A DNA stretch of 64,000 nt from a phage. Position numbers and translations under genes: made by a program. The notes beneath the pieces were generated by a model. That model did not search any database. It saw only the letters and a program-made list of their open reading frames with translations, and was not told the DNA's origin. Shown piece after piece: positions 2,423 through 58,837 of the stretch. The number at the start of each line of letters is the position of its first letter. The stretch's first letter is position 1. The stretch lies in sequence record PX880103.1; one strand, given 5' to 3'.

Positions 2423-2616
2423 ACTAATTCCTTTAATCCGTAAATAGGAGATAATTCATCGCCCATACGAAGGTCTTCATTTCCATCTACCCAGGAAACA
2501 ATATAAGCCTCTTTTATTTGAATACCACTCCATTTAAATGGAGGTAGAACCTTAGAAATTAATCCAGGTATACCAACTCCCTTTAATTCAACAGTTTGAC
2601 CTAAAAAGAATTTCAT
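2419..2616 (-). CDS. hypothetical protein
   Basis: 65-aa ORF in translationally coupled chain. Confidence 0.5.
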   Translation of the reverse strand: MKFFLGQTVELKGVGIPGLISKVLPPFKWSGIQIKEAYIVSWVDGNEDLRMGDELSPIYGLKELV

Positions 2617-2903
2617 TAGAACCTCATCTGAAAGCCATGCGATTTAACATTACCGCCGCCAATATCAGAAATATTAATTTCACGCGCAATTGAAGGGTCA
2701 ATGTCAATTTCACGATTGAGTTTAGTGATAGCTAAAGTATCGCGCCCATTTACAGTACGGAACTCTAAAGGACATACTACATTAACGTAGTTTTTAATCG
2801 ATTCGCTGGTAGGTTGCAAATGAGCAGGAAGGTCTTTAGGCGCCTTAGAGAAAACCACTTCACAGAAATTTTTGCGGGTATCAAAATAAGTAGTCATAAA
2901 CAT
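2616..2903 (-). CDS. hypothetical protein
   Basis: 95-aa ORF. Confidence 0.55.
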   Translation of the reverse strand: MFMTTYFDTRKNFCEVVFSKAPKDLPAHLQPTSESIKNYVNVVCPLEFRTVNGRDTLAITKLNREIDIDPSIAREINISDIGGGNVKSHGFQMRF

Positions 2904-2944
2904 AGTATTTTCCTCAGTAAGGGGCCGAAGCCCCTCATTTTATT

Positions 2945-3310
2945 TTAAATATCAAATTCGTTAAGAACTACATCAAAGATTGCTTCAAGATGCTCAGGTT
3001 TAACTCTGTTACTCAGAATATGACGAATCCAAGTTTTAACCAGAAGCTTGCGATTAACGCCATTCCAGCAAGGATGAGTCCCTAAATCACGTTGACGAAA
3101 ATCATCATCCAAAGCGATTTTGAAGTTGGAACCTTTCATTGTGATTGAAACCGTGATGCCATTTTCAAATCGCATATAAACGTAGTTAGGAGTCATATAC
3201 TGTTCAATTTCGCATACTGATCCATTTTGATGTTTCCAAAGGCAAATAGTATCAATAGAACCTGCAATACCATTAGAAACATATTTACGTTCAAAGTTGA
3301 TGTAGTTCAT
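2945..3310 (-). CDS. hypothetical protein
   Basis: 121-aa ORF. Confidence 0.55.
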   Translation of the reverse strand: MNYINFERKYVSNGIAGSIDTICLWKHQNGSVCEIEQYMTPNYVYMRFENGITVSITMKGSNFKIALDDDFRQRDLGTHPCWNGVNRKLLVKTWIRHILSNRVKPEHLEAIFDVVLNEFDI

Positions 3311-9919: not shown

Positions 9920-11507
<1,588 letters not shown>

Positions 11508-17668: not shown

Positions 17669-17911
17669 TTAAACAGACTTTTTCACAATTTTCCAATCAG
17701 CTTTAAACTGGTCGACGTCAGAATGGTAAATCCAGAATCCTGCGCTTTCTCCGTCTTCATAAAGAGGACATCCATCGCATTCATCTTCCCATCCCATATC
17801 ACGTAAAAGGTGTTCAGCTTTTTCAACAAGTTCAGAATCTTTACCGATGATATTAAAATACCATTTACCTCTAACTTCTGAATCTTTAATGCTCTGACGC
17901 TGTAATCTCAT
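17669..17911 (-). CDS. hypothetical protein (frd.2 position)
   Basis: 80-aa ORF. Confidence 0.55.
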   Translation of the reverse strand: MRLQRQSIKDSEVRGKWYFNIIGKDSELVEKAEHLLRDMGWEDECDGCPLYEDGESAGFWIYHSDVDQFKADWKIVKKSV

Positions 17912-17924
17912 TTTATTCTCCTCA

Positions 17925-17968
17925 AGTTGATAAGGCTATAGTATCATTACCATAGCCTGTTGTAAACA
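17925..17968 (-). promoter_or_regulatory. sigma70-type early promoter
   Basis: Minus-strand GTTTAC (plus 17962-17967) with TATAGT-like -10. Confidence 0.5.
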
Positions 17969-19939: not shown

Positions 19940-20038
19940 TTTTATTTCCTTTTTAATTTAATTAACAGTTGGTGCTATGACGATGTATGACCTCATAGCT
20001 GGTCAGTGAGGTAATTATAATCTATTTATAATAAGCAA

Positions 20039-32420: not shown

Positions 32421-33077
32421 ATGGCAGCACCTAGAATATCATTTTCGCCCTCTGATATTCTGTTTGGTGTTCTAGATCGCTTGTTCAAAGATAACGCTAC
32501 CGGGAAAGTTCTTGCTTCCCGGGTAGCTGTCGTAATTCTTTTGTTTATAATGGCGATTGTTTGGTATAGGGGAGATAGTTTCTTTGAGTACTATAAGCAA
32601 TCAAAGTATGAAACATACAGTGAAATTATTGAAAAGGAAAGAACTGCACGCTTTGAATCTGTCGCCCTGGAACAACTCCAGATAGTTCATATATCATCTG
32701 AGGCAGACTTTAGTGCGGTGTATTCTTTCCGCCCTAAAAACTTAAACTATTTTGTTGATATTATAGCATACGAAGGAAAATTACCTTCAACAATAAGTGA
32801 AAAATCACTTGGAGGATATCCTGTTGATAAAACTATGGATGAATATACAGTTCATTTAAATGGACGTCATTATTATTCCAACTCAAAATTTGCTTTTTTA
32901 CCAACTAAAAAGCCTACTCCCGAAATAAACTACATGTACAGTTGTCCATATTTTAATTTGGATAATATCTATGCTGGAACGATAACCATGTACTGGTATA
33001 GAAATGATCATATAAGTAATGACCGCCTTGAATCAATATGTGCTCAGGCGGCCAGAATATTAGGAAGGGCTAAATAA
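32421..33077 (+). CDS. t: holin T
   Basis: 218 aa = T4 T length; single N-proximal TM segment and large periplasmic domain; position after gene 38. Confidence 0.9.
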   Translation: MAAPRISFSPSDILFGVLDRLFKDNATGKVLASRVAVVILLFIMAIVWYRGDSFFEYYKQSKYETYSEIIEKERTARFESVALEQLQIVHISSEADFSAVYSFRPKNLNYFVDIIAYEGKLPSTISEKSLGGYPVDKTMDEYTVHLNGRHYYSNSKFAFLPTKKPTPEINYMYSCPYFNLDNIYAGTITMYWYRNDHISNDRLESICAQAARILGRAK

Positions 33078-43575: not shown

Positions 43576-45393
43576 CTGGCTCATCCATTCTTTACGAAGG
43601 TCAGCATTATCTCCCATGAGCATTTCAAAAAGCTCTTTCCAGTTCTCAGGAAGTTTAACAACATCATATACTGGGTTTTGAATCATCTCACGATATTCAG
43701 ATTTTTCCAAAGAGCCAAGTCCTTTAATATAACGGATGCTATGTTTAGGTAGAGCATCTTTGGCACTCTCATATTCAGCGACTGTATAAAACCATTCTTG
43801 TTTTTTACCGACCTGAGCGATGATTACAGGAGTTTTGACAAAGCGAATTCTTCCTTGTTCAAACAGTTCTGGCCAATTACTAAAAAATCCGAGCAGAGAA
43901 GGATAAATGCTTCCTAGACCATCATGGTCAGCATCAGTCATAATAGCAATATTATGATAATTCAAGTTTTCAGCTTTTTCACCGAGAACTAATCCAGTGA
44001 TTGCGCAAATATCAAATAGTTCTTTGTTTTTAAGCATATCGGCATATGACATACCCCAGCTATTAAGAACTTTACCGCGTAATGGATAACCACCGTGAAG
44101 TTCTTTATCACGAACATCAATAAGATATCCGATAGCAGAATCACCCTCGGTTAAGAACAATGTAGTGTCAGCATCTTTACCGCAAAGATTCGCTTTAATA
44201 TGTTTATGAACCTTAGCTTTAGAAGCCTTTTTAGCTGCTTTAGTTTCTGCTGCTTTTTCTGCTGCCAATTTACGAGCTAATGCTGCTTCAATAATTGGCA
44301 TTAGAATTGCTTCATTATTTAGAATAGCGCGTGAAATCTTTTTAGCATCAAGTTGAATATGACTACGAATTTCACCAAATGGAGAAGTCAAACGCTCTTT
44401 AGTTTGAGAGTCAAATCGCATGTTTTTCATATCGCGAACAAACATAACGATAGTCAAACATTCTTTAACACGTGCTTTAGTCACATCAATTTTGAACTTA
44501 CGTTTGATTTGTGGAATAAGGTCTTCACAAATATCATCCATAACACAGTCAATGTGATGGCCACCATTCTTAGTATGAATGTTATTGACGTATGTTAATT
44601 GACGAAAACCATCCGGTGAACGACCAACCGCAATAGAACAATTTTCTTGTTCTTGAACGATAGCATGTTCATCATATTGGCGTGCGTATTTCTTAAAATT
44701 ACCCTGAACCTTTTTACCATTAAAGGTAAATTGAATATCAGGATAAACAACAGCAAGTGTTTGGAGACGATCTAGTGTAATGTCAAGATAAACTTGGGAC
44801 AGCTCATTAGTTTCAAATGACATAAAATCAGGAATGAAAGTAACACGGGTTCCTTTCCATTTTCCAGGAATATCTTCCCATGATTTATTTTCCATGCCGT
44901 TTGAACAACGAACTACAATATTATTTTGACCATCGCCAGTTTCACCAACAAACATCACAGAAAAAATGTTTGTCAAACTAGAACCAACACCATTCATACC
45001 GCCAGTGACGCGTTCTTTATCATCACCAAAGTTACCACCTGCTTTTGGAATAGTCCATGCAGCAACAGGACCAGGAATTTCTTCACCGGTAGGTGTTTTA
45101 ACCATTGCCTGCGGAATACCACGACCGTTATCTTCAACTGTTACTTGATTGTTTTTAATAGTAACATTAATTTTATTTGCGAATTTAAACTTAGTACGAA
45201 TACCTTCATCTACTGAGTTATCGATAATTTCATCAATAAGCTTAACAAGACCAGGTACATACTGAACACTTTCCCATTTACCAAACAGAAAGCGCTCATG
45301 CATTTCATTAGCAGAAGAGCCAATGTACATGCCGCTACGCTTTTTGATATGTTCAATATCGCTCAGAATTTTAATTTCATTCTTAATCATCAC
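43573..45393 (-). CDS. 39: gp39 DNA topoisomerase II large subunit (GyrB-like), unsplit
   Basis: 606 aa continuous; GHKL ATPase and TOPRIM motifs; in T4 this protein is split into genes 39 and 60. Confidence 0.9.
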   Translation of the reverse strand: MMIKNEIKILSDIEHIKKRSGMYIGSSANEMHERFLFGKWESVQYVPGLVKLIDEIIDNSVDEGIRTKFKFANKINVTIKNNQVTVEDNGRGIPQAMVKTPTGEEIPGPVAAWTIPKAGGNFGDDKERVTGGMNGVGSSLTNIFSVMFVGETGDGQNNIVVRCSNGMENKSWEDIPGKWKGTRVTFIPDFMSFETNELSQVYLDITLDRLQTLAVVYPDIQFTFNGKKVQGNFKKYARQYDEHAIVQEQENCSIAVGRSPDGFRQLTYVNNIHTKNGGHHIDCVMDDICEDLIPQIKRKFKIDVTKARVKECLTIVMFVRDMKNMRFDSQTKERLTSPFGEIRSHIQLDAKKISRAILNNEAILMPIIEAALARKLAAEKAAETKAAKKASKAKVHKHIKANLCGKDADTTLFLTEGDSAIGYLIDVRDKELHGGYPLRGKVLNSWGMSYADMLKNKELFDICAITGLVLGEKAENLNYHNIAIMTDADHDGLGSIYPSLLGFFSNWPELFEQGRIRFVKTPVIIAQVGKKQEWFYTVAEYESAKDALPKHSIRYIKGLGSLEKSEYREMIQNPVYDVVKLPENWKELFEMLMGDNADLRKEWMSQ

Positions 45394-45459
45394 TTATCCT
45401 CGTTTGGTTTCGGGAATATTATACTCCAGTAATCATAAAGCTAAAGGCCCGAAGGCCTT

Positions 45460-45729
45460 TTATTTAAAACGAATAGTCGAATCCTTGAAGAATAGTCCAG
45501 AACATACTGTTCCTTCTACTTTCTGCCCGGTAGGTCCAATAGCACGAAATCCAGTATGTTGGAAATCATTTTCAGAGCAACCGAACCAGTTATATCCAGT
45601 GATTTCAATATTAGTAAAACCACTTGAAGACAAAACTTTGGTTGCATTATCAGCATCAGTACATCCTACTAAAGACACTACTAATACTAATGCTGCGATA
45701 GAACGATTAATATATTTCATAATTTTCAC
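45460..45729 (-). CDS. putative lipoprotein
   Basis: 89 aa; signal peptide with lipobox SLVGC. Confidence 0.55.
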   Translation of the reverse strand: MKIMKYINRSIAALVLVVSLVGCTDADNATKVLSSSGFTNIEITGYNWFGCSENDFQHTGFRAIGPTGQKVEGTVCSGLFFKDSTIRFK

Positions 45730-46103
45730 TTAAATTTAATGGCTTGAAGAAGACTAATAACTCTCAAGCGGCTTCTTTCATCTTTAACTGTAAAGGAAAG
45801 AGGGTCACCAGATTTCATAGTGATAGTGCATCCAAAATCAAAATTTTCGGGAACTTCTTCGAAGAAGTCAAATTCTTCAGCATAAATTAGAACATTACTC
45901 TGCATACTGTGAAGAATTTTTCCATTATTTCCAGACGCTGTACTAATCATCGTAACATTATGACCTTTCATATCTTCAACGATAAATTCGCTTGTAGATA
46001 TTACAGCATTAATAGAACCATTCCTATAAATAGCAGACATTAGATATTTCTTTTCTTCGCCTTCGCGAATACGATATTTCTTACCGATTTTAAACATAAT
46101 CAC
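45726..46103 (-). CDS. hypothetical protein
   Basis: 125-aa ORF (track start is GTG; ATG two codons in). Confidence 0.5.
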   Translation of the reverse strand: MIMFKIGKKYRIREGEEKKYLMSAIYRNGSINAVISTSEFIVEDMKGHNVTMISTASGNNGKILHSMQSNVLIYAEEFDFFEEVPENFDFGCTITMKSGDPLSFTVKDERSRLRVISLLQAIKFK

Positions 46104-56370: not shown

Positions 56371-56889
56371 TCAATAACCTCGGTCTTGACGAGCGAAGTT
56401 TTCAGCATTTTTCAGATAATAAAGTTTAAAGATTTCTTCAGCCGTAAGACCGAGACCTTGGAACATGTTCAGAACGAAATGAAGAATATCAATCATTTCG
56501 AATTTAATTTCCAACTGGTCTTGTGGAGATAAGTCAGTAATCAGAGTTTCACGACGTTCACCGTGTTGCGACTTCCAAGGCTTCCATACAGCAGATGCAT
56601 CTTTTTCGCCATTGCTCATACCACCAAGAGAAGTCAGAAGTTCGCGGAATTCATCATCAATATAATCTTTCTGATTACGCAGCCAATCAACAACTTCACC
56701 TGCAGTAGCCAAATCATCAGGATGACGGTTATATTCAGGTTTATCTTTAGCTAAACGAACCTGCAGAGATTTCTGCATATCAAGCATAACTTGCAACGGA
56801 TCTTTTTCATCACCGAGAATATCCCAGTATTCATTTTGAGCTTTATCAGCGCCTTCGATCAGTTGACTACATTCGTTGAAATGTGGCAT
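56371..56889 (-). CDS. 56: gp56 dCTPase/dUTPase (MazG-like)
   Basis: 172 aa ~ T4 gp56; MazG-like EMIDILHFVLNMF helix; adjacent to soc. Confidence 0.85.
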   Translation of the reverse strand: MPHFNECSQLIEGADKAQNEYWDILGDEKDPLQVMLDMQKSLQVRLAKDKPEYNRHPDDLATAGEVVDWLRNQKDYIDDEFRELLTSLGGMSNGEKDASAVWKPWKSQHGERRETLITDLSPQDQLEIKFEMIDILHFVLNMFQGLGLTAEEIFKLYYLKNAENFARQDRGY

Positions 56890-56890
56890 G

Positions 56891-57541
56891 TTATTTTTCC
56901 TTTCTTATGAAGTTTTCTATCATATGTCTATAGCAGATATTAGGATAACCTGCCTTGACAGCTATTTTATTAAATTTTGTGCGCTTAGGTCTATTATTAT
57001 AAACCCATAATTCATAAAGCGCATCATAACTATTCCATATTTCTCCTCGCCTAGGATTTGGTAAACCATATCGAGGTGAATTTTTACCGCTAAATCTTCC
57101 TTTTCGGGCTTTACTCATATTAGCCTTGGCTTCATCGGATATAATTTTACCTTTATGAGCTAGACGCATTTTGGCTTTAGTTTCTTCTGGGGTCTTTTTG
57201 CCTTTAATCCATGACGGCTTGCCATATCTAGGATTATTTTCACCCGAGAAAAGAACAGAGTTTTGGATTTTAAGGGTTTCTATTAATCTACTTGTTAATT
57301 TAACACCTTTATTATATCGCATTAAATTTACAGCATAATGCAATCCTCTCACATCTGGATATATTTTAGTTAATAATCTATGAGCTATAAAATGCTCACG
57401 CGCAGTTAACTCAACAAGATTGTTTTTGTCATCTGCTCCTCCTATACATCTAGGAATTATATGATGGCGTTCTTTATATCCGCCAAGATGCCGGCATTTA
57501 GCTTTTGTAATTAAAGCCGAGTAAATTTTTTGGTAATTCAC
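56891..57541 (-). CDS. HNH homing endonuclease with NUMOD3-like DNA-binding repeats
   Basis: 216 aa; HNH core ERHHIIPRCIGGADDKNNLVELTAREHFIAH; repeats TPEETKAKMRLAHKGK and SDEAKANMSKARKGR; starts with GTG. Confidence 0.75.
   Translation of the reverse strand: MNYQKIYSALITKAKCRHLGGYKERHHIIPRCIGGADDKNNLVELTAREHFIAHRLLTKIYPDVRGLHYAVNLMRYNKGVKLTSRLIETLKIQNSVLFSGENNPRYGKPSWIKGKKTPEETKAKMRLAHKGKIISDEAKANMSKARKGRFSGKNSPRYGLPNPRRGEIWNSYDALYELWVYNNRPKRTKFNKIAVKAGYPNICYRHMIENFIRKEK
56891..57541 (-). mobile_element. freestanding homing-endonuclease gene inserted between genes 56 and 61
   Basis: HNH/NUMOD3 architecture typical of T-even mob/seg elements; intergenic position between conserved core genes. 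Confidence 0.5.
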
Positions 57542-57611
57542 ATATATCCTTTCAATTCATGGGTTAGTAGATTAATTATACAATAAATATATAAAGCAAT
57601 AAGGAGGACAT

Positions 57612-57812
57612 ATGGTACAAAAATTAATGGCACTTGTTAATGCCATCAAAGGTAATAAGAAACGTATAGCTTTTACTATTTCTGCTATGGTAGGAATTTT
57701 ACTCTGGAATTTTGTTTTATCGCCAATTGCTATTGCTCATGGCGTTAATATTCCAGTAATTACTCTTGATACATTCGTAGATTTAGCATTTGCTTTAGTT
57801 GGGTTAATTTAA
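57612..57812 (+). CDS. small membrane protein, opposite strand to all neighbours
   Basis: 66 aa with two hydrophobic segments; strong AAGGAGG RBS 4 nt before the ATG; 3' end overlaps the gene 61 stop. Confidence 0.5.
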   Translation: MVQKLMALVNAIKGNKKRIAFTISAMVGILLWNFVLSPIAIAHGVNIPVITLDTFVDLAFALVGLI

Positions 57813-58837
57813 ATCTTAGCATATTTAGATAGCCGCATTTTAGCCATCAACCCTTGAGCAATATTATTTTTCATATATTCCATAATTTGTTCAGGGGTTG
57901 CACCTTCCTTTCTAATCATATCATTAACATCTTTTGATTTCCAGGGAGATTTGTCCCAAAACATAACCCTTTCTCCTGCATCAACTAATTTAGTCATTCG
58001 TTTAATAGTGTCAGGGTGACGAGGTTCATTATCTAAAACCCATACACGTCTATCTTTAAATGGAACAATTTCTAGGTCTAATTGACCACCCGTAATAGCT
58101 ATACCATTTTCAATAAAAAGTGAATCTATAGGTCCTTCTAGAACATATACATCACCATCTTTAACTCGTTCGACTCCATATATTTTTGTTGCCTCAGGAT
58201 AAGCTTTAATGGTGATATATTTTTGGGGAGCATCTTTCTTTAATGCACGTCCTTGAAAAGACTCAGCTTTTCCATTAGCATTATAAATTGGAATAACAAG
58301 ACGAGGCTCAGAAATTTCCTTTTTATATGTTCCCGGTGCTATGCTATTAACCAATTTAGGCCATTCGGTTGTAAACCAAAGATATTTCCATTTATCCTTT
58401 GGAATACAACGAGCTTTTACATATTTTATAATTGGATGGTCTTCCGTCAGTTTATCTAATCTAACACATGACGGAAGAGATTTAATTATTTTCTTCTCAG
58501 GTTGTTTAGGAAGTTCTTTAGGTTTTTCTACTGGACGACTTTTACCTTTTTCTTTTCTTATTTCAAAGATATACTCACGATATAAATCAGGTTCAAACTC
58601 CTTTAAATATATTCCGATTGGTGCATGATAGTTGCAGTTATAACAATGAATATTTCCTTCATTATTATCACCATAATACCATCCACGAGCTTTATTCTGG
58701 TCGGTTTTTGAATCTCCACAAACAGGGCATCTAAACCGTAATTTAAAAGTTGAACTATTATTTACTTGTGTGAATTTAGGTAAATGAGCTAATGCACGAT
58801 ACGCAAACTCATTATCAATCCAAGGTATTGATGACAT
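57809..58837 (-). CDS. 61: gp61 DNA primase
   Basis: 342 aa = T4 gp61 length; zinc ribbon CPVCGD...CYNC and TOPRIM domain. Confidence 0.93.
   Translation of the reverse strand: MSSIPWIDNEFAYRALAHLPKFTQVNNSSTFKLRFRCPVCGDSKTDQNKARGWYYGDNNEGNIHCYNCNYHAPIGIYLKEFEPDLYREYIFEIRKEKGKSRPVEKPKELPKQPEKKIIKSLPSCVRLDKLTEDHPIIKYVKARCIPKDKWKYLWFTTEWPKLVNSIAPGTYKKEISEPRLVIPIYNANGKAESFQGRALKKDAPQKYITIKAYPEATKIYGVERVKDGDVYVLEGPIDSLFIENGIAITGGQLDLEIVPFKDRRVWVLDNEPRHPDTIKRMTKLVDAGERVMFWDKSPWKSKDVNDMIRKEGATPEQIMEYMKNNIAQGLMAKMRLSKYAKI

Follow-up and report, generated by a model that had tools for sequence, protein, structure and literature searches.

Imm and Sp, the superinfection exclusion proteins, are small envelope proteins of the T-even phages, and in T4 the corresponding genes imm and sp are early genes, with imm on the minus strand. 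Holin T of T4 is a class III holin with a single membrane span, oriented with its N-terminus inside and its C-terminus outside (N-in/C-out), and T4 t mutants do not lyse. The gene t belongs with soc, 34 and 36 to the late genes, which are served by gp55/gp33/gp45 at promoters with the consensus TATAAATA. Among 50 listed T4 late promoters, 32 are perfect and nine carry A at -13, the commonest variant (Geiduschek & Kassavetis, PMC2988020), and across the T4-like phages position -13 is A or T (Nolan et al., PMC1524935). The early and middle transcripts of T4 all run counter-clockwise (PMC2988020).

The closest described relative of the gene analysed here is dam.1, so annotated in the record of phage T4T, and its product Dam.1 (ADJ39749.1) is the counterpart of RB69ORF029w and RB32ORF030w. 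We found its homologue in a 64,000-nucleotide stretch of phage DNA (PX880103.1; hereafter the window), as a short plus-strand open reading frame (ORF) whose product is 95% identical in amino acid sequence to T4T Dam.1. The two genes share their position, their strand and the same 4-nt overlap with the stop codon of gene 61; on the opposite flank the window phage has an HNH endonuclease gene and T4T has dam, and otherwise nothing material differs. In keeping with the T4 late genes, the ORF has a late-promoter-like 8-mer, identical to the one before t in the window, a short leader, a strong Shine-Dalgarno sequence and clockwise polarity, but unlike them it stands alone within an early/middle minus-strand region and converges on an early gene, and its promoter is putative. 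With Imm and Sp the ORF product shares the character of a small, in this case predicted, envelope protein of T-even phages; sp itself belongs to the same region, at a distance of about 2 kb, but is on the minus strand, whereas the ORF has the opposite, late polarity. The ORF product was set apart from Imm and Sp by way of the family libraries, where only phrog_2024 matched.

Results

Position of the ORF and its signals

The DNA of the window derives from a T4-like phage of the genus Tequatrovirus, and the closest records are about 98-99% identical to it across positions 56800-58000. The features of the locus are collected in Table 1, and the ORF translates as MVQKLMALVNAIKGNKKRIAFTISAMVGILLWNFVLSPIAIAHGVNIPVITLDTFVDLAFALVGLI.

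Table 1. Features at and around the ORF, in window coordinates
Feature	Coordinates	Strand	Remarks
66-aa ORF (homologue of T4T dam.1 and RB69ORF029w; phrog_2024)	57612..57812	+	ATG start
Shine-Dalgarno sequence AAGGAGG	57601..57607	+	4 nt 5' of the ORF ATG
Late-promoter-like 8-mer AATAAATA	57582..57589	+	22 nt 5' of the ATG; putative activity
TTAA palindrome	57809..57812		overlapping stops of the ORF (+) and gene 61 (-)
Gene 61, DNA primase	57809..58837	-	invariant convergent neighbour of the ORF
Terminator-like hairpin and U-run	hairpin 57649..57624 (11 bp), U-run 57623..57619	-	within ORF codons 3-13, the hairpin proper in codons 5-13
MotA-type middle promoter	57575..57599	-	from sequence; 'predicted middle promoter' in fPS-2 at the same place
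Free-standing HNH/NUMOD3 homing endonuclease gene	56891..57541	-	mobile insertion between gene 56 and its RBS; context, outside the ORF unit
Gene 56, dCTPase	56371..56889	-	

On the minus strand, the gene order near the ORF is 41, dmd, sp, 61.2, 61.1, 61, HNH/NUMOD3, 56 and soc, and the HNH gene and the ORF are divergent, with 70 bp between them. The earlier note on this DNA had described the ORF as the only one on the plus strand amid a run of minus-strand genes, provided with a strong Shine-Dalgarno sequence and converging on gene 61 with overlapping 3' ends, and all three points hold. In phage G4498, which is 98.7% identical, the ORF is the sole plus-strand CDS of the 42 in the first 23 kb. 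In the window itself, all ORFs of at least 90 amino acids from about 33 kb to 64 kb lie on the minus strand, except for one of 136 amino acids (45323-45733, plus strand), and its remaining plus-strand genes are those of the late tail-fibre/holin block (22.3-33.1 kb). We considered whether the 136-aa ORF, embedded in the early region of the minus strand, might be a further opposite-strand gene, and rejected this; since it is unannotated in G4498 and overlaps minus-strand genes annotated there, it is probably a shadow ORF.

The Shine-Dalgarno sequence stands at a short distance from the ATG, and (A)GGAG(G) precedes the ATG in all genera examined, the exception being the second, apparently co-transcribed copy in phage VR25, which has GGTGG. 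At the other end, the TAA stop of the ORF occupies 57810-57812 on the plus strand and the stop of gene 61 is the complement of 57809-57811, so that the two genes share 4 nt because both stops overlap in TTAA. The identical 4-nt overlap is also found in Mosigvirus, Moonvirus, Gelderlandvirus, Marfavirus and Gaprivervirus.

Evidence that the ORF is a gene

Taken by itself, an ORF of 66 codons is not above chance in the AT-rich DNA of the window, for which many spurious ORFs are listed. The present one rises above chance because it is the sole stop-free frame of its interval, shows an excess of synonymous changes and stays open in many genera. Indeed, only frame +1 of the interval is free of stops, and it also has the largest share of variable codons with synonymous changes only, with ratios of 15:10 in Tequatrovirus and 14:6 in Mosigvirus, as against 1-7 : 16-19 in most other frames; the antisense frame -2, which shares the third positions, comes nearest (11:12 and 12:7). 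The pairwise dN/dS of the ORF is 0.09-0.29.

Furthermore, each of the 22 copies retrieved from collections of phages, viral contigs and metagenomes was intact, and tblastn located the ORF in 693 phage records, in every one of them at the 3' end of the primase gene. The frame is thus conserved in related phages, being intact in at least ten T4-like genera, and it is open in every genus despite a stop frequency of about 7% per random codon. In the T4 reference (NC_000866) the ORF is intact at 17738-17938, without annotation, and the copy in Dhakavirus JS10 (1465-1665 of the fetched locus) is likewise unannotated, while the annotation of fD1 begins the homologue at the second in-frame ATG, giving 61 amino acids. 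Judged by these comparisons of sequence, the ORF is a real protein-coding gene.

The dam.1 family

The ORF product matched phrog_2024, a family of unknown function, with an E-value of 5.4e-31 over residues 2-66 of 66, aligned to positions 1-65 of the 65-position profile, whereas searches of Pfam and NCBIfam gave no meaningful match. An exhaustive HMMER search with subfamily A alone recovered just six representative clusters, and the wider family was reached by synteny, followed by tblastn and a profile search. As a result, homologues of 63-69 amino acids were found in Tequatro-, Mosig-, Gapriver-, Dhaka-, Jiaoda-, Moon-, Gelderland-, Kanagawa-, Mosuguk- and Marfavirus, and in all ten genera they lie on the plus strand and converge on the primase gene. 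They fall into three subfamilies whose mutual identity is just 17-30%, and subfamilies B and C also match phrog_2024 (E-values of 1e-24 to 1e-27). W32, N33, P38 and G44 are invariant across the subfamilies, A40 and P48 are at least 90% conserved, and an acidic residue occurs near position 53. The resulting family core, W-N-x4-P-x-A-x3-G-x3-P with an acidic residue about five positions on, is present in the ORF product, D53 included. The profile search returned 86 clusters at 90% identity, mostly of 63-69 amino acids with a few shorter or longer, and these came from phages of T4-like size wherever the contig was long enough to judge; no informative name or Pfam domain occurred among the 86 clusters.

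In RB49 (Krischvirus), outside the Tevenvirinae, genes 56 and 61 abut and the ORF is absent. The ORF protein evolves faster than its neighbours, with identities of 25-54% compared with 59-74% for gp61 and 69-90% for gp56, and therefore it is probably accessory. We found no paper on the gene under the names dam.1, ORF029w, ORF030w or T4Tp032, and nothing relevant in the literature on T4 Ribo-seq or small-ORF studies. By its family membership and synteny, the ORF is an already catalogued but uncharacterised backbone gene of the Tevenvirinae.

Gaprivervirus VR25 carries tandem paralogues before the primase gene (1495-1692 and 1701-1901 of the fetched locus), namely a subfamily A copy followed 8 nt on by a subfamily B copy. 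The pair looks co-transcribed, since a late-promoter motif stands only before the first.

Relation to the HNH endonuclease gene

The earlier note had proposed that the ORF could be cargo of the endonuclease cassette, for example a superinfection-exclusion or membrane-acting factor. The HNH gene is indeed the adjacent, divergent gene in the window, and about 30 phage records have the same contiguous 56-HNH-ORF-61 arrangement. These records are, however, the only ones with it, and nearly all of the 693 records with the ORF lack an adjacent HNH gene, so that on a presence/absence comparison the ORF occurs independently of the endonuclease. The ORF adjoins gene 61 whatever lies on its other side, be it dam (T4), gene 56 directly (ime09) or the HNH gene (window); in IME537, which likewise retains the ORF beside gene 61, dam and another gene stand between the HNH gene and the ORF.

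The ends of the insertion also speak against the proposal. Compared with ime09, the HNH gene is a clean insertion of about 651 bp between the ATG of gene 56 and its RBS region, and its right boundary (about 57547-57560) lies about 50 bp before the start of the ORF, upstream of the promoter-like motif. Moreover, an HNH cassette of at least 91% nucleotide identity occupies the identical site in Tequatrovirus, in Mosigvirus SSE1 and in Jiaodavirus KEN25_1 (about 56890-57546 in the window; 1501-2264 and 2501-3222 of the fetched loci of SSE1 and KEN25_1, respectively). In SSE1 and KEN25_1 the homology to the window ends at TCCTTTCAATT(CA), and what follows is each phage's own upstream region and its own, divergent version of the ORF, with 54% (Mosigvirus) and about 26-30% (Jiaodavirus) amino acid identity to that of the window. 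Because the same cassette precedes each genus's own version of the ORF, the endonuclease moves between genera without it. On these grounds the cargo reading is refuted, and we accord it virtually no probability.

RBS-like sequences that resemble each other border the cassette on both sides (..TTTTTCCTTTC and ..ATATATCCTTTC). The first 50 nt or so of gene 56 in the window are nearer to the Jiaodavirus copy than to that of ime09, which lacks the HNH gene, a likeness that suggests co-conversion. Window gp56 is just 73.8% identical to T4T gp56, compared with 99.1% for the neighbouring gp61, and is nearer to the versions of Dhakavirus (90%), Gaprivervirus (84%) and Mosigvirus (83%). These values suggest that gene 56 is a mosaic, which is consistent with endonuclease-driven exchange, since T4 has segF beside gene 56. 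In Mosigvirus SSE1, the HNH gene and gene 56 are annotated as one 'homing endonuclease' CDS of 390 amino acids (1029-2201 of the fetched locus), which may reflect a genuine fusion, a frameshift from sequencing or an error of annotation.

Late promoter motif and expected time of expression

The 8-mer upstream of the ORF, AATAAATA, matches the T4 consensus TATAAATA at seven of eight positions, with A at -13. The identical 8-mer lies 18 nt 5' of the holin gene t in the same window, and TATAAATA itself lies 23-34 nt 5' of genes 34, 36 and soc. Across the family, nATAAATA is found 12-22 nt 5' of the ATG in eight of ten genera, in upstream sequences that are otherwise unrelated. The homologues of Marfa- and Kanagawavirus are preceded by a perfect TATAAATA, and those of Tequatro-, Mosig-, Dhaka-, Gapriver-, Jiaoda- and Mosugukvirus by AATAAATA, GATAAATA or CATAAATA, the T4 version being GATAAATA (7/8), while Moon- and Gelderlandvirus have only ATTAAATA (6/8). 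A chance occurrence of the motif is unlikely because ATAAATA is depleted in the window, with 15 copies (nine on the plus strand) compared with 36.6 +/- 5.5 in dinucleotide shuffles; the probability of a chance copy within 40 nt of the ORF ATG is roughly 0.006. As a design only, the promoter-knockout form of AATAAATA would be AAGCAATA.

Plus-strand copies of ATAAATA stand 18-34 nt before 34, 36, t and the ORF, and a minus-strand copy stands 31 nt before soc. Other perfect copies of TATAAATA in the window (for example at 10457 and 46026 on the plus strand and at 20029 and 4791 on the minus strand) have no ORF of at least 40 amino acids within 60 nt.

No plus-strand sigma-70-type promoter above chance was detected upstream of the ORF, and plus-strand terminators near or after the ORF in the window were at chance level, none of them convincing. 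Since the early and middle transcripts of T4 all run the opposite way, the ORF is most likely expressed late. In the absence of a convincing plus-strand terminator after the ORF, the late transcript would probably continue antisense into gene 61.

Minus-strand signals in the same DNA

The ORF shares its DNA with signals of the opposite strand. The hairpin within its 5' end follows the stop of gene 61 by about 160 nt, has a dG of -12.4 kcal/mol (z of -4.06) on the minus strand and is weaker on the plus strand, the minus strand folding better because of G-U pairs. The annotation of fPS-2 marks the same hairpin as a terminator, and it most likely ends the transcript of gene 61. As the hairpin lies within ORF codons, the same DNA would encode a peptide on the plus strand and a probable terminator on the minus strand. 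In Mosigvirus no equivalent hairpin folds at that position. Jiaodavirus has instead a GC-rich hairpin between the ORF and the primase gene. We also considered translational control by an RNA hairpin formed on the plus strand where the coding region begins, and rejected it, as the palindrome folds well only on the minus strand.

The middle promoter upstream of the ORF has its MotA box TTGCTTTA complementary to 57592-57599 and its -10 element TATAAT complementary to 57575-57580. These two elements are 11 nt apart, and the late 8-mer of the plus strand, AATAAATA, falls within that spacer, so that the two promoters overlap back to back. This predicted minus-strand promoter would drive the HNH gene and gene 56.

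Architecture of the predicted protein

Lysine and arginine are confined to positions 4-18 of the ORF product, and its sole acidic residues are those at 53 and 57. A near-zero insertion energy was obtained for just one segment, a 19-residue stretch (19-37), within a membrane span at about 19-42. A second hydrophobic segment (48-66) carries D53 and D57 and is modelled as a 12-residue helix (52-63); the C-terminus reads ...DLAFALVGLI, and no basic residue follows position 18. For the last 19 residues the insertion energy is +6 kcal/mol in the ORF product and +9 to +12 kcal/mol in the other subfamilies; in these, moreover, the stretch that follows the LPP turn is not long enough to cross a membrane. 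An AlphaFold2 model built from a 36-sequence alignment has a mean pLDDT of 81, with helices at 2-13, 16-42 and 52-63.

The coding signal, the hydropathy and the AlphaFold2 model together bear out the small hydrophobic, membrane-protein gene that the earlier note had seen on the opposite strand. Its two hydrophobic helices are present as two hydrophobic segments, but only the one at about 19-42 scores as a membrane span, and the topology derived from the positive-inside rule and a simple hydropathy sum is that of a membrane protein with one span, N-in/C-out, instead of two. The ORF product is thus, on these models, most likely a single-pass inner-membrane protein, and the C-terminal segment of subfamily A may be hydrophobic enough to form a helical hairpin. 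The best-conserved block of the family coincides with the outer half of the transmembrane helix and the juxtamembrane turn, from which we infer a helix-helix contact. Foldseek searches of viral models and of the PDB yielded nothing beyond members of the family and noise.

Discussion

We consider it likely that the ORF is a backbone gene expressed late in infection and that its product is a single-pass inner-membrane microprotein acting by helix-helix contact. The gene would encode a microprotein of 63-69 amino acids throughout the Tevenvirinae (phrog_2024; 'Dam.1' in T4T) and would be transcribed only late, from a gp55-type late promoter just upstream of the Shine-Dalgarno sequence, on a transcript that converges on primase gene 61 and probably runs antisense into it. 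The protein would place a basic amphipathic N-terminal helix in the cytoplasm, cross the membrane with one helix bearing the invariant W32-N33...P38...G44 and the near-invariant P48, and end at the periplasmic face in a short helix of acidic or hydrophobic character. In the late phase it would pair, by helix-helix contact, with another copy of itself or with a membrane protein of the phage or the host, on the periplasmic side of the inner membrane; the most plausible targets would be lysis timing, envelope integrity or late exclusion. What the sequence analysis itself establishes is the gene, its conservation, its independence of the HNH gene, the promoter motif and the hydrophobic architecture; the late timing, the topology and the mode of action are deductions. 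Points against this reading are the imperfect promoter motif (7/8 in the window phage and in T4, 6/8 in Moon- and Gelderlandvirus) and the short spacing of 4 nt between the Shine-Dalgarno sequence and the ATG.

Two other accounts would leave the protein without a function. The ORF could be spurious, the interval being only the 3'-UTR and terminator of gene 61 together with the promoter region of the downstream minus-strand genes: a terminator hairpin and a MotA-type middle promoter of that strand fill the 5' end of the ORF and the spacer upstream of it, and the interval is blank in the T4 reference annotation. Yet the hairpin spans just 26 nt of the 201-nt ORF and has no Mosigvirus equivalent, and the reading frame is open across genera with a frame-specific synonymous bias, which leaves this account hardly any credence. 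The other is that selection acts on a late antisense RNA that covers the 3' end of gene 61 and would turn off primase expression late in infection, the peptide being incidental. The late promoter does aim into gene 61, without a convincing plus-strand terminator downstream in the window, and the convergent arrangement is conserved; however, the low dN/dS, the residues that stay invariant at 17-30% identity and the conserved length and Shine-Dalgarno sequence all indicate constraint at the level of the protein, and the GC-rich hairpin of Jiaodavirus would limit read-through. We regard an antisense function as quite unlikely.

Other accounts accept the protein and give it a more specific task. 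It could be a small holin or pinholin-like protein, a holin accessory or an antiholin that forms or gates the terminal membrane lesion. With holin T it shares a late-type promoter, down to the identical 8-mer before t, and a probable single N-in/C-out span, as modelled here; with small holins and pinholins it shares its small size, its hydrophobicity and a polar residue, in this case an Asn, in the span. The C-terminal helix is amphipathic, the predicted span at about 19-42 provides the transmembrane domain, of which holins have at least one, and two database records name homologues 'holin' and 'putative holin', with no stated basis and, we assume, automatically. On the other hand, the charged C-terminal tail typical of holins is missing, and the protein also lacks the large periplasmic domain of holin T, which it does not resemble in sequence or profile. 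Nor does the gene belong to a lysis cassette, its neighbours being primase and HNH/dCTPase (or dam) with no endolysin or lysis gene adjoining, and these phages already have t (32421-33077 in the window). There was no significant fold match, the two holin-named matches outside the family having E-values above 8. None of the classical r (rapid-lysis) loci is known to map to the interval from gene 56 to gene 61. A holin-like role is accordingly unlikely. A late-type promoter and a small hydrophobic product would also suit a virion- or injection-associated peptide that is synthesised late, packaged and used to help bring the genome across the inner membrane, but the ORF lies far from the structural gene clusters and no structural homologue was found. 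The homologue g032 was, in addition, not detected among the particle-associated proteins in the proteome of an fD1 virion preparation, where detection is inherently poor; this absence is weak evidence, because the protein has only one usable tryptic peptide. We hold a packaged peptide to be very unlikely.

Among the conceivable functions of a late single-pass microprotein, no homology (Pfam, NCBIfam) or fold match supports any particular one. An inner-membrane role late in infection is our best guess and is offered with low confidence. A more specific and rather doubtful idea is that the protein is an overlooked part of late envelope control, a helix partner of holin T, RI, the spanins or a host complex that would tune lysis timing, lysis inhibition or late exclusion.

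Although T4 serves as the reference organism for the group, NC_000866 leaves the interval empty, so that genome-wide studies relying on the T4 reference annotation would miss the gene. The main value of the finding is therefore a conserved gene that is missing from the T4 reference annotation and is easy to test. Conserved in every Tevenvirinae genus examined, it is a cheap and well-defined target for a knockout, which might add a component to the late envelope or lysis biology of the T-even phages.
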